From Anaeromyxobacteraceae bacterium (GTDB taxonomy: Bacteria > Myxococcota > Myxococcia > Myxococcales > Anaeromyxobacteraceae): a stretch of 64,000 nt of DNA. The notes beneath the pieces were generated by a model. It searched no databases, had not been told where the DNA came from, and saw only the letters and a list, made by a program, of their open reading frames with translations. The translations under genes were made by a program, and so were the position numbers. The stretch is taken from positions 128,001-192,000 of the forward strand of contig JASGHJ010000002.1 in NCBI GenBank assembly GCA_047602405.1, given 5' to 3'. The first letter of the stretch is position 1, and each line of letters opens with the position of its first letter. Positions 48,095-53,120 of this stretch are shown piece by piece.

Positions 48095-48466
48095 ATGGCC
48101 GCCTCGACGAAGGACCTCCTGCTGAAGCTGTTCGCCGGAGGGGACGCGAGGCCGGTCCGCACGTCGCAGACGCTCTTCCGCGAGGGCGAGCAGGGCAACT
48201 CGGCCTTCGTGGTGCTCGAGGGCGAGCTCGAGATCACGATCCGCGGCATCACCATGGAGCGCGTCGGCCCGGGCGGCATCGTCGGCGAGATGGCGTTCGT
48301 GGACGACTCGCCGCGCGCGGCGAGCGTGTCGGCGCTCGTCGACTCGAAGGTGGTCGAGGTGCCGGCCGCGCGCTTCGACGAGATTGTGCGGAGGGACCCC
48401 GCGTTCGCGCGCGTGCTGCTCTCGATCGTCTCCGAGCGGCTCCGGAAGATGAACCGGTACCTGTAG
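48095..48466 (+). CDS. Stand-alone cyclic-nucleotide-binding domain protein
   Basis: LFREGEQG..AFVVLEG, GEMAFVD..PRAASV; RBS GGAGG. Confidence 0.88.
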   Translation: MAASTKDLLLKLFAGGDARPVRTSQTLFREGEQGNSAFVVLEGELEITIRGITMERVGPGGIVGEMAFVDDSPRAASVSALVDSKVVEVPAARFDEIVRRDPAFARVLLSIVSERLRKMNRYL

Positions 48467-48492: not shown

Positions 48493-48529
48493 TTGACGCC
48501 GACAGGCCTGTGCTGAAAAATCAGCACAG
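48493..48529 (+). promoter_or_regulatory. Promoter (-35 TTGACG) and palindromic operator CTGTGCTGA-AAAA-TCAGCACAG directly before the blaI-like ATG
   Basis: Perfect 9-4-9 inverted repeat 48508-48529; 17-bp core recurs at 50934-50950. Confidence 0.85.
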
Positions 48530-48919
48530 ATGCCACGCAAGGTCGCCGAGTCCCTCAGCCGCCGCGAGCGGCAGGTCATGAACGTCCTCTTCCGCCGCGG
48601 CGAGGCCACGGTCGCCGAGGTGCTCGGCGACCTCGCGGACCCGCCCACCTACTCCGCCGTGCGCTCGGTGCTGCGCATCCTCGCGGAGAAGGGGCTCGTC
48701 ACGCACCGGGAGGACGGGCCTCGGTACGTGTACCTGCCCGCGGTCGAGACGGGCCGGGCCGGGACGGAGGCGCTGCAGCACGTGGTGAAGACGTTCTTCG
48801 AGGGCTCCGCCGAGCAGGCGGTGACGGCGCTCCTCGAGCTGAGCGACGCCGGCCTCACCGACGCGGAGCTCGAACGGCTGCGCGAGCGCATCCGCGCCGC
48901 GAAGAAGGCGGGGAGGTGA
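48530..48919 (+). CDS. BlaI/MecI/CopY family repressor
   Basis: LSRRERQVM.VL...GEATV.EV...PTYSAVR..LRIL.EKG, TFFEGS. Confidence 0.93.
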   Translation: MPRKVAESLSRRERQVMNVLFRRGEATVAEVLGDLADPPTYSAVRSVLRILAEKGLVTHREDGPRYVYLPAVETGRAGTEALQHVVKTFFEGSAEQAVTALLELSDAGLTDAELERLRERIRAAKKAGR

Positions 48920-48923
48920 CGTG

Positions 48924-50887
48924 ATGGCCCTCGAGCTCGCGCTCCTCGTGGCGAAGGCGACCGCGCTCCTCGGCGCGGGCGCGCTCGTGGCCCTCGCGCT
49001 CCGCGGCGCCTCCGCGGGCGCCCGGCACCTCGCGTGGGCGCTGACGCTCGGCGCCGCGCTGGTGCTCCCGGCGGCCGCCCGCCTGAGCCCGTGGCGGCTC
49101 GAGGTGCTGCCGGCGCCGGCGGCCGTCGAGGCACCGCCGGCCGCGCTCGCCCCCGCCGACGGGGTCCCGGAGCCGTCCGCCGCGCCGGTCCGCCCCCTCC
49201 CATCCCGCGCGCACGGCCAGGTCACGCCGGCGCGCGCCGTACCGTCGCCGTCGCCGTCTCGGGCGGAGGCGATCACGTTCGCGCCCGATCCGGCGGCGCT
49301 CGCCGTGATCCTCTGGGCCGCGGGCGCCGTCCTGCTCGCGCTCCGCGCCCTCGACGGCCAGCGCGCCGCCCGGCGGCTCGTGCGCGCCGCCCGGCCCTGC
49401 GCGGACCCCCGGCGGCTCGACCTCCTCATCGATTCCTCTCCGACCGGCTCGGCCTCGAGGAGCCGCCCCGCCTGCTCGTGAGCGACGCCGTGGCGATGCC
49501 GTTCGCGTACGGGCTCCTCCGCCCCGTGCTGGTCCTGCCCGCGCAGGCGGCGCGGTGGGACGACGCCCGGCTCGCCGTGGTGCTCCTGCACGAGCTCGCG
49601 CACGTGCGGCGGCGCGATCCCGCCGTGCACGCGCTCGCCGGCCTCGCGCGGGCGGCGTGGTGGTTCCACCCGCTCGCGTGGTGGGGTGCGGCGCGCCTGC
49701 GGGCGGAGGCCGAGCGCGCGGCCGACGATCACGTGCTGGCGTGCGGCGCCCGGCCCAGCGACTACGCGACCCACCTCGTCGAGATCCTCGCCGCGGCGCG
49801 GAGGCCCGGGGTGCCCGCGGCCGCGCTCGCGATGGCGCGCGTGCGCGAGCTCGAGGGCCGCCTCGTCGCGCTGCTCGATCCCGCCGTCCGCCGGGGCGCG
49901 CCGGGCCTCGCCGCCCGGGCCGGGCTCTCGCTCGTGCTGGCGGCGGCGCTCGTCACGGTGTCCGCGGCGGCGACGACCGCACCGGCGCCGGCCGCCGCGC
50001 CTCCGAAGGCCTCCCCGGCGGAGGCCTCGGCGCCGGCGACCGCGGCGGCACCCGCGGAGCCCGCGCGCCCGGTCACCGCGCCCCGCCGCACGGTGAGCGC
50101 GGCGCAGCCCGCGAAGGCGGCGGCGCCGGCCCTCGCCGCGCCCGTGACCGCGCCGGCCGCTCCCGGAGCGGGCGCCCGCACGGCGCTGCTCTCGAAGGTG
50201 CTGGCCACCAATCCCGACGCGGAGGTCCGCAGGGCTGCGGCCTGGGCGCTCGCGCAGGACCGCGGCGCCGCCTCCGCGGCGGAGCCGCTCGTGGGCGCGG
50301 TTCGCGGAGACGCCGACCCCGAGGTGCGCGAGATGGCCGCCTGGGCGCTCGCCGACGCACCCGGCGCCTCCATCGGCGCCGCCCTGGCCGCGGCGCTCCG
50401 CTCCGACCGGGAGGCCGAGGTGCGGCGGACCGCCGCCTGGGCGCTCGGTCACCGCGAGGACGGCGACGCCGCCGCGCTCGCCGCCGCCGCGAAGGACCGG
50501 GACGCCGAGGTCCGCGAGGTGGCGCTCTGGGCGCTCGGCCAGCGGCGGGCCGCGGAGGCCCAGGCCGCGGCGGCGGGCGCGCTCCGGGATCCCGAGCGCG
50601 ACGTGCGGCTGGCGGCGGCGTGGGTGCTCGGCGAGCTGCCGGACGCCTCGGCCGCGAAGGCCCTCGAGGCCGCCTTCCAGTCCGAGCAGGACGGCGAGGT
50701 GCGCGAGGCGCAGCTCCGGGCGCTCGCCTTCCTGGGCGACGCCGAGGGCGCGTGGCTCGAGAAGGCGCTCACCTCGCGCGACGCGGAGCTCCGCGCCCGC
50801 GTGGTGGCCATGCTCGCGGGGAAGGGGCCGGGCCCGTGGCCGTGGCCGTGGCCGTGGCCATGGCCGGATCCGAGGCCGATGCCCTGA
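48924..50887 (+). CDS. M56 (BlaR1-type) metallopeptidase with C-terminal HEAT repeats and (PW)n tail; frameshift ~49432
   Basis: TM N-terminus; PFAYGLLRPVLVLP, HELAHVRRRD, WWFHPL, ERAADD; about 7 EVR..AAWALG-type repeats. Confidence 0.88.
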
Positions 50888-50933
50888 GGGGGAGCGGGGG
50901 AGCACGGGGGGCAAGGAACTTGCGCGTGGAGAG

Positions 50934-50950
50934 GTGCTGAAAAATCAGCA
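50934..50950. promoter_or_regulatory. Second copy of the BlaI-like operator GTGCTGAAAAATCAGCA
   Basis: 17/17 identical to 48510-48526; upstream of the HEAT-repeat gene. Confidence 0.85.
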
Positions 50951-50961
50951 GCGGCGCGGGA

Positions 50962-51007
50962 CCTTCCCCGACCCGAAGCGGCGGGGGAGAGGGCCAGGGT
51001 GAGGGGG
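50962..51007 (+). repeat. REP-like element (GGGGAGAGGGCCAGGGTGAGGGG type)
   Basis: Resembles the widespread CCCCTCACCC..CCCTCTCCCC intergenic repeats; single copy here. Confidence 0.5.
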
Positions 51008-51010
51008 CGC

Positions 51011-51112
51011 CGGAGCGGGAGCGGGAGCGGGAGCGGGAACGGGAACGGAAGCGGGAACGGGAGCGGGAACGGGAGCGGGAACGGGAGCGGGAGCGGGATC
51101 AGAAGCAGAAGC
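51011..51112 (+). repeat. Hexanucleotide tandem array, mostly GGGA(G/A)C, 17 units
   Basis: 15 GGGARC-like units plus 2 AGAAGC, ending at the RBS AGGAGGG. Confidence 0.95.
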
Positions 51113-51123
51113 AGGAGGGAACA

Positions 51124-52438
51124 ATGGCCATGTGTTCGGCGATCTTGTCGGCGATGCTGGGGTTCACCACGGCGGTGGCGGCGCCGCAGGGAGGGGATTC
51201 GAGGGACCTGCTCAGCGCGGCGCGGGGGGCGGCGCCGGCGCTGTGCGCGCTCGCGATCGACGGCGTGGGGAGAGGCGGCGGGCACGGGTTCGATGCGCCG
51301 TCGCTGCCCGTGACGACCGCGGTGCGCGAGCGGCTCCGCGGGAGGGGGGCGGCGCCTTCGGCCGAGGAGGCGAAGGCCCTCGTCGGCGCGCTCGGCGCGG
51401 GGGACCCGTGCGAGCGCCACATGGCGGCGACGCTGCTCGGGCGGAGCGGCTCGGCGCCGCTCGCGGCGGAGGTCGCCGGGCGGCTCGGCGCGGCGGCCGC
51501 GCCGGAGCGCGCGGCGGTGCTCCTCGCGCTCGGGACGATGGAGGCCTCGGCCCAGGCGGCGCCGGTGGCGAGGGCGCTCGGCGACGGCGTCAGGGAGGTC
51601 CGCGCCAACGCGGCCTGGGCGCTCGGGCGCATGGAGGCGAAGGGGCAGGTGCCGGCGCTGCAGGCGGCGCTGAAGGACCGGGAGCCGATGGTGCGCGCGG
51701 CGAGCGCGACCGCCCTCGGGCGGATGGAGGCGAAGGCGGCGGTGGAGGCGCTCGGCAAGGTGCTCCGCGCGGACGAGGACGCCGAGGTCCGCCGCACCGC
51801 CGCCTGGGCGCTCGGCGAGCTCGAGGACCGCGCGGGCGCCGGCGCGCTCGCGGCGGCGCTCGCCGGTGACAAGGCGGTGCCGGTGCGCGAGATGGCCGCG
51901 TGGGCGCTCGGGAACCTCGAGGCGAAGGACCAGGTGGAGGCGCTCTCCCGCGCGCTCTCCGACGACGCGATCGAGGTGCGCGAGACGGCGGCCTGGGCGC
52001 TCGGCGAGCTCGAGGCGCGCGGCGCGGAGCCGGCGCTCGCGAAGGCGCTCGCGGACAAGGCGCCGGAGGTCCGCGAGACCGCGGCCTGGGCGCTCGGGCA
52101 GCTCGAGCTCCGGACGGCGCCGCCGGGGCTGGTCGCCGCGCTCAAGGATCCCGAGGCGGACGTCCGCCTCGCCGCGGCCTGGGCGCTCTCGGAGAATCGC
52201 GGACCGCGGGGTGGCCGCCGCGATCGCGGGCGCGCTCCAGGCCGAGAAGGACGACAAGGTGCGCAAGGCCGAGATCCGCGCGCTCGTCGAGCTCGACGAG
52301 CCGCCCGCGGAGGTGCTGAAGGGGCTGCTCGAGGCGAAGGACCCCGAGACGCGCGCGCTCGCGGTGCGTGCGCTCGCGGGCCGGGGGCACCCGTGGCCGT
52401 GGCCCTGGCCGCGCCCGCAGCCCCGGCCGTCGCCTTGA
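51124..52438 (+). CDS. Exported HEAT-repeat protein with (PW)n tail; frameshift ~52195
   Basis: Signal-like N-terminus; about 11 HEAT repeats; removing one A from GAATC restores LSEIADRG and joins the frame ending PWPWPWPRPQPRPSP. Confidence 0.85.
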
Positions 52439-52490: not shown

Positions 52491-53120
52491 ATGCGCCCAG
52501 CCATCCTCGCCGTCGTCGCCTCCGCCGCGCTCGCCTGCGGCACGTCCACTCCGCCCCCGGCGCCGTCGCCCGCCCCGGTGCCGGCCCAGCCCGCGGCGCA
52601 GCCCGCCCCCGCGCCGGTCGCGGCGCCCGCGCCCGCTCCCGCACCGGAGCCCGCGCCCACGCCGGCCCCGAAGCTGGAGGAGAAGGTCGTGGCGCAGGCT
52701 CCGGCCCCCGCGCCGAAGCCGGAGGTGAAGCCCGAGCCGAAGCCGGCGGCGCCCGCGCCCGCTCCGGCCCCCGCGCCGAAGCCGGAGGTGAAGCCCGAGC
52801 CGAAGCCTGCGGCGCCCACCCCCGCTCCCGCCCCCGCCGAGCCCGCGTCCACGCACGCCAAGGTCGGCGCCGCGAAGTGCAAGATGTGCCACAAGGTCCA
52901 GTACGCCTCGTGGGAGGCCTCGAAGCACCCGGCCGCGAACGTCGACTGCGAGGCCTGCCACGGCAACGGCGGCGAGTACTGGATGGCGTCCGTGATGAGG
53001 GATCGCGCGAAGGCGACGGCGGCCGGGCTCGTGATGCCCACGGTCGCGAGCTGCAAGAAGTGCCACCCGGGCGCGGACGCCGCGCTCCTCGGGAAGGCCC
53101 ACGCGCACAAGGGCGGGTAG
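52491..53120 (+). CDS. Triheme cytochrome c lipoprotein with Pro-rich linker
   Basis: Lipobox ALAC; CKMCH, CEACH, CKKCH; duplicated APAPAPKPEVKPEPKPAAP. Confidence 0.88.
   Translation: MRPAILAVVASAALACGTSTPPPAPSPAPVPAQPAAQPAPAPVAAPAPAPAPEPAPTPAPKLEEKVVAQAPAPAPKPEVKPEPKPAAPAPAPAPAPKPEVKPEPKPAAPTPAPAPAEPASTHAKVGAAKCKMCHKVQYASWEASKHPAANVDCEACHGNGGEYWMASVMRDRAKATAAGLVMPTVASCKKCHPGADAALLGKAHAHKGG

Follow-up and report, generated by a model that had tools for sequence, protein, structure and literature searches.

A C-terminal tail of alternating prolines as candidate self-ligand of a HEAT-repeat sensor in a BlaI/M56 operon

Introduction

Why do two neighbouring bacterial genes, one for an M56 membrane metalloprotease with a HEAT domain and one for a secreted HEAT protein, end in the same run of alternating prolines? 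Both lie in a 64,000-nucleotide stretch of an Anaeromyxobacteraceae genome (the window; contig JASGHJ010000002.1, positions 128,001 to 192,000). A first-pass annotation had suggested that the tail is a polyproline-II ligand of the Trp-lined HEAT groove, within one protein or between the two, or else a membrane-interface anchor or a sorting signal. From alignments, the tail probably docks in the groove of its own protein, in cis or between copies. Our main reading, to which we give a probability of roughly 0.55, is that the tail is a built-in pseudo-ligand, a lid on the protein's own Trp-lined groove, in a non-beta-lactam sensor of the BlaI/BlaR type.

Results

Gene order and reading frames

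The gene order is blaI, the M56-HEAT gene, a copy of the common palindromic operator and the secreted HEAT paralogue (Table 1). The Penicillinase_R repressor gene directly adjoins the protease gene on its upstream side, an order that is conserved. The M56 domain of the window protein scores 84 bits against a PF05569 cut-off of 31, and Pfam finds HEAT families alone after it. By hydropathy only, four membrane helices are predicted in the homologue P0125 and three in the two pieces of the window M56 protein. The secreted protein has a predicted signal peptide, and a hydrophobic stretch stands at the N-terminus of 104 of 108 homologues. Many database N-termini among P0005-P0124 start too early, with the operator itself translated as MLKNQ- or SADFS-like stretches.

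Just 5' of operator 1 lies a gene for a stand-alone cNMP-binding domain (48095-48466), and directly after the HEAT gene one for a predicted secreted multihaem cytochrome c (52491-53120); both also occur in the relative G010. The cytochrome has a long X-Pro-rich linker of Pro-Ala, Pro-Glu and Pro-Lys and is not conserved beside the operon elsewhere. The spacer from operator 2 to the secreted gene contains a run of GGGAGC/GGGAAC hexamers (50999-51110), which is not present in the aligned G010 stretch.

Both HEAT genes of the window carry frameshifts. Compared with G010, the M56 gene has two additional nucleotides near 49434 and the secreted HEAT gene one at 52195, each a frame change against the homologues; because of the frameshift in the assembly, the ORF from 51124 ends out of frame with its own tail. 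Short-read contigs of relatives (three records) are 1-2 bases shorter over both stretches, consistent with intact frames in those relatives. G010 has frame breaks of its own, at other places. At least four breaks fall in about 3.9 kb of the two assemblies, more than expected from 21 breaks over 100,405 aligned bases, which makes assembly error plausible for both genomes; real decay of the locus in both is possible. The locus is present in one of 60 relatives of the window's genome, which suggests that it was acquired by transfer. A search of sequencing runs returned no RNA holder among those listed (shares 0.05-0.06).

Table 1. Features of the operon, in window coordinates.
Feature	Positions	Strand	Evidence or remark
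Palindromic operator 1, TGCTGA-N4-TCAGCA	48511..48526	.	Upstream of blaI; likely BlaI site (inferred)
BlaI/MecI-type repressor	48530..48919	+	PF03965 E 8.7e-25
M56 membrane metalloprotease with C-terminal 7-repeat HEAT domain	48924..50887	+	PF05569 E 1.7e-23, PF13646
HExxH zinc motif (HELAH) of the M56 protein	49589..49603	+	
HEAT sensor domain, predicted to be periplasmic, with five Trp at alphaRep position 26	50177..50821	+	tblastn, column conservation
Groove-site Arg, column 299, predicted partner of tail position -5	50426..50428	+	
M56 X-Pro tail plus stop	50828..50887	+	Asp at -5 = 50867-50869; kept in 117/120 homologues
Palindromic operator 2	50935..50950	.	Precedes the secreted HEAT gene
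Predicted secreted HEAT paralogue	51124..52438	+	Pfam HEAT; Cys-bearing N-cap, ten repeats
X-Pro tail of the secreted protein plus stop	52391..52438	+	110/120 homologues of the tail-less query

The tail is a conserved peptide

Both X-Pro runs, with their stops, lie where the first-pass annotation had read them, and the helices that end in LAG close just upstream of them. Its claim of a shared (Pro-Trp)n tail holds for the sharing and not for the unit, since what is conserved is the fixed 13-mer P-W-P-x-P-x-P-x-P-R-P-x-P. The 13-mer starts 5-6 residues past the last helix in both paralogues, with length and register fixed. When M56-HEAT proteins were scored without the tail, 117 of the 120 listed (of 2085, query included) had the 13-mer and the remaining three had near variants of it. 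A query for the secreted protein, likewise without its tail, listed 120 of 1731 homologues, of which 110 had PWPW or WPWP within 60 residues of the C-terminus; the ten others were truncated or frameshifted records, other subfamilies or carriers of a variant tail.

Synonymous codon use had been cited as a sign of selection on the peptide. Inside the window the argument is thin, with CCG four times and CCA once before TGG in the M56 tail. It holds across 118 homologous tails, where each of the seven Pro positions is found with all four Pro codons, Arg is written with all six of its codons and PWPWP has 29 DNA spellings. This diversity rules out pure DNA slippage as the origin of the tail; the window M56 tail is one unit longer than that of G010, which indicates some slippage on top of the motif.

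A DNA pattern for the tail only, run over GTDB genomes, matched at least 146 stretches with at least 124 distinct stop-terminated matches. Among the 124 listed, 119 belong to the present HEAT family (118 by rule, one by eye), and most record titles name Gemmatimonadota; Eisenbacteria, Verrucomicrobiia, Polyangiales and Anaeromyxobacter have one record each. Of 201 genomes in the phylum to which G061 belongs, 35 have an M56-HEAT match at E<=1e-100, with or without a tail. Across the window's genome (6.16 Mb), none of the other hits among 45 six-frame matches to WPWP/(PW)nP ends a HEAT-type frame, as judged by eye.

The groove of an alphaRep-like solenoid

The model of the homologue P0007 (pLDDT 86.6) has alphaReps as its best fold matches (Foldseek, phmmer). 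It resembles alphaRep-7 with a TM-score of 0.91-0.92 and an rmsd of about 2 Å and has the same scaffold of 31-residue two-helix repeats. Positions 18, 19, 22, 23, 26 and 30 are the variable ones in alphaReps and lie on the concave binding face (available text of PMC3754942). Position 26 is Trp in five successive repeats in nearly all of 108 secreted and 118 M56 rows, and mostly Arg in the two repeats after this ladder in both paralogues.

AlphaFold confidence over the last ten residues was 79 for the full model, while an 80-residue model without the ladder had 67 there; the queries differ, the control model is generally weaker and the confidence values come without coordinates, so the support for docking from this comparison is weak. 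For the 80-residue control, no fold match reached E<=0.001. When repeats 1-8 were modelled in complex with the last helix and tail, the score was 0.02, which we counted neither for nor against docking.

Charge pairing between tail and groove

Column 299 (position 22 of the third Trp repeat) was named beforehand as the partner of tail position -5. In the combined alignment, columns 299 and 332, which correspond to alphaRep positions 22 and 23, rank first and second for this tail position; in the M56 proteins alone, several non-groove columns rank above them. After 51 of 333 rows with an uncharged -5 were set aside, the groove-site charge was opposite to that of the tail in 261 of 282 rows, neutral in 21 and of the same sign in none. 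The correlation (r=-0.95) was the best of 156 column pairs. In the window, the M56 protein combines tail Asp with groove Arg299 and the secreted protein Gln with Glu299.

On a tree from which the tested columns had been excluded, all five charge changes were concordant, and P0225/P0242 show a nested triple reversal. Three of the five lie on well-supported branches, and with these three pairs the phylogenetic test of the charge swap is not significant (p=0.25).

The same charges bear on the idea that tails bind across partners, each in the other protein's groove, with the secreted protein as ligand or inhibitor of the sensor. Most tail positions are common to both proteins and both genes share the operator, as such binding would have it. 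Of 28 operon pairs, which are kin and not independent, 21 could be parsed on both sides. Charged tails matched their own groove in 33 of 35 cases with no clash, whereas tails swapped between partners in the same register clashed in 28 of 35 and matched in four. Within operons, moreover, tail length tracks the protein's own ladder length (see below). We consider the cross-binding of sensor and secreted protein, which the first-pass annotation had raised, highly improbable.

Covariation fits docking in cis and docking in another copy of the same protein alike. In the latter case tails would link copies by domain swap or as a chain, and a ligand would shift the oligomeric state; BlaR1 is itself a domain-swapped dimer (available text of PMC9834060). 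The short conserved Gly-rich turn and the antiparallel order of charges suit a fold-back of the tail on its own chain, and we regard homotypic binding as improbable.

Length, loss and relocation of the tail

The wider family was represented by 150 sequences at 50% identity, from which 28 without a usable HExxH or longer than 1200 residues were dropped. An X-Pro tail ends 50 of the remaining 122 M56-HEAT representatives. The first-pass annotation had made its case depend on orthologues keeping the tail; close orthologues do, while 72 of these 122 more distant sensors are without it. Ladder length was taken from Trp counts and spans, since the automatic repeat parser misses divergent repeats. 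Tails mostly have seven prolines with five Trp in the ladder, 7-9 with seven and 7-11 with eight to ten (rho 0.63 over the 50 tailed representatives). The scaling rests on three changes on the tree (p=0.5) and has exceptions in P0318, P0377 and P0420. In the operons L178, L180 and L215, a short-ladder sensor with a short tail is joined to a long-ladder partner with a long tail. Long tails are rich in Arg and Gln, and 13 of the 50, all on long ladders, have no Trp, which leaves the alternating Pro as the constant feature.

These tails bear on the remaining roles that the first-pass annotation had offered. Trp and Arg are typical membrane-interface residues, and the Trp/Arg content of the tail and its position at the extreme C-terminus would suit an anchor or a sorting signal. 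The 13 Trp-less tails and the Glu, Asp, Asn or Gln at -5 of most M56 tails argue against an anchor. No hydrophobic segment follows the tail (no hydrophobic 19-mer was found in tail piece P0003), and its confinement to one family among the matches listed speaks against a sorting signal as well. Both roles are disfavoured, and we see a very slim chance for either.

An X-Pro tract also occurs elsewhere in the chain. It lies in the linker of 13 of the 72 tail-less sensors and of three of the 50 tailed ones (Fisher p=0.06), including four of the five members of the sister group to the main tailed clade. The extracellular loop of M56 was considered as the X-Pro ligand of tail-less sensors and is not supported, as a 7-residue tract occurs in seven of 49 (six of them close kin) and a 9-residue tract in none. 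A homologous secreted family (that of P0109; 32 ORFs in 77 metagenome loci, including L184, L189 and L195) bears a fixed X-Pro tract, rich in Met, in its N-cap loop and has no C-terminal X-Pro tail. Its C-terminus is mostly alternating Val, Arg and Lys instead. Neither blaI nor M56 was found in the fetched flanks of these 77 loci.

Relocation to the N-cap and the groove covariation are left unexplained if the tail acts in translation, by slowed termination or arrest after the C-terminal proline. Pro/Arg-rich arrest peptides exist, and Pro is the final residue of 103 of 108 secreted proteins; 37 of 117 M56 tails extend beyond their last Pro. An effect on translation seems to us barely credible.

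A further possibility is that the tail is a permanent structural cap, which would shield the Trp ladder and resist proteases, with signalling through another surface, for example the extracellular loop of M56 or the N-cap with its Cys. All of the docking evidence fits a cap equally well, the very high invariance of the tail suits a fixed structural element, and three Trp may bind too tightly for displacement. The 72 tail-less sensors keep Trp-bearing repeats, so no cap is needed for folding, and binding in the alphaRep fold is known to take place at the groove (available text of PMC3754942). We judge a permanent cap unlikely.

Operator and regulon

Exactly two perfect copies of TGCTGA-N4-TCAGCA occur in the window's genome, one before blaI and one before the secreted gene. 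With up to two mismatches allowed, the stretch that separates the two genes contains an operator in all 28 pairs; of 2000 shuffled windows, 6 contain one. The palindrome is the predicted binding site of BlaI. Exact matches to a degenerate operator occur in 44 of 201 genomes of the phylum, against two with a reversed control; some sites in these 44 genomes are part of other BlaI systems.

In 18 of 43 loci, the gene next after the secreted one is DUF5916/CBM9-like, and DUF5916 was the sole name returned by an ESM Atlas search. Unlinked DUF5916-like genes have their own operator in four genomes, identified by Pfam in G061, G165 and G132 and by likeness in G135. Such DUF5916/CBM9-like genes, each behind an operator, lie at L279:1713-4307, L311:351-2951, L315:468-3026 and L336:3135-5786. 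No operator stands in front of the two DUF5916-like genes of the window's genome. Other genes after the secreted gene encode TPR proteins and an amidohydrolase-TPR-S41 fusion.

Short lipoprotein-like ORFs after the HEAT gene in L017, L018, L019, L050 and L079 cluster with the S41-bearing fusion and, by eye, resemble a truncated S41 peptidase domain. L314:3040-4515 (G099) is an M1-peptidase-like gene behind an operator, and L280:5521-6654 (G064) encodes a secreted alpha/beta hydrolase behind a double operator, with weak prolyl-iminopeptidase hits. This hydrolase and a best hit to Xaa-Pro dipeptidase in L014 are hints of proline peptidases that fall below curated cut-offs. A 239-residue protein with no Pfam family stands behind a double operator in L312:3108-3824 and L313:3088-3804, and both genomes hold the system. 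Genes like S9/X-Pro dipeptidyl-peptidases at similar operators (G229, G259) were discarded, as they adjoin other BlaI genes and the fetched stretch has no HEAT-bearing M56.

Discussion

Fixed register, charge complementarity and length tracking argue, indirectly, for the polyproline-II-like docking in the Trp groove that had been proposed at first pass, in the sense of self-docking only. A Gly-rich turn of 5-6 residues after the last helix would lay the tail antiparallel along the last seven repeats, with about one X-Pro pair per repeat and the prolines stacked on the Trp ladder. Tail position -5 would then pair with columns 299 and 332, and the C-terminus would reach the Arg-Arg repeat.

In the self-ligand reading, a Pro-rich peptide from outside would displace the lid, the M56 protease would cut BlaI and the operon would be induced. 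These steps are modelled on BlaR1, with importin-alpha as a further analogy for release by an outside peptide. The secreted paralogue would be a periplasmic binding protein or sponge with a lid of its own, often co-induced with the DUF5916 protein, a predicted outer-membrane barrel. Candidate ligands may be antimicrobial peptides rich in Pro, the X-Pro linkers that damage would expose in TonB and other periplasmic proteins, and fragments of plant or algal wall glycoproteins.

More tentatively, these solenoids may be natural modular readers of X-Pro, in which each HEAT repeat takes one dipeptide by a simple code, Trp stacking on Pro and positions 22 and 23 picking the charge of X. The matched self-ligand would evolve with the solenoid, changing in length and position (C-terminal tail, linker or N-cap loop), and the BlaI regulon with its DUF5916 barrel would sense, take up or neutralise Pro-rich peptides. 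This combined picture is possible, and we hold it with clear reserve.

An envelope sensor whose tail would serve as decoy ligand for its own groove is likely an undescribed kind in bacteria. Literature searches of open-access papers on M56-HEAT-BlaI sensors, PWPWP tails, Gemmatimonad BlaR1/HEAT proteins and polyproline-autoinhibited repeats, judged by titles and listings, found no description, and one on DUF5916, also of open-access papers, found none. Most BlaR-like sensors bind no beta-lactams and their signals are largely unknown (available text of PMC13492132). The present sensor seems to contain a version of its own type of ligand, which makes X-Pro peptides the candidate signals. If true, the system would show what the alphaRep scaffold does in nature and by what sequence code it binds a peptide repeat by repeat, of use in protein engineering, and would provide the first regulatory link for DUF5916, an unstudied family.

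Among known systems, PEP-CTERM-like sorting signals combine a motif, a membrane helix and a basic cluster and are common to many unrelated proteins, whereas the present tail has no membrane helix and, among the matches listed, is confined to one HEAT family. Engineered alphaReps vary position 26; here this position is a fixed Trp ladder for which we propose a natural peptide partner. Importin-alpha resembles the proposed sensor in that a ligand mimic from within the protein fills a helical-repeat groove until it meets competition from cargo, but importin-alpha is a eukaryotic armadillo protein with an N-terminal basic mimic (available text of PMC7583046). At 12-17% identity, this is an analogy of working and not membership.

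Beta-lactamases, which BlaR1-type systems induce, are related in kind to the sensor domain, and here too such kinship exists between the sensor domain and the secreted protein that would be induced. In Staphylococcus aureus BlaR1/BlaI, as here, a BlaI repressor is joined to an M56 zinc protease with a C-terminal sensor domain, which lies outside the cell in BlaR1 and is predicted to do so here; in the S. aureus system BlaI is cut directly, and a loop of BlaR1 itself occupies the sensor site in competition with ligand, which excludes it (available text of PMC9834060). The sensor here is a HEAT solenoid in place of a penicillin-binding domain, and the proposed self-ligand is the C-terminal tail. 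Pfam and NCBIfam found no penicillin-binding transpeptidase sensor domain in the window M56 protein, which scores 47 bits against a cut-off of 400 for NCBIfam BlaR1 (NF000326).

In the non-canonical BlaIR system CenIR, too, M56 is paired with BlaI without a transpeptidase domain. In the available text of PMC13492132, a beta-lactam domain is found in only about 6% of M56 proteins, systems of the CenIR type control envelope genes in response to an unknown signal, HEAT is not among the domains of the figure legend, and the word 'heat' occurs once, for a methods step. The outside part of CenR is predicted to be disordered there, whereas the present sensor domain, predicted to be periplasmic, is a HEAT solenoid. 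With its repressor, protease and operator, but no beta-lactam sensor, the locus is a variant of BlaIR signalling.
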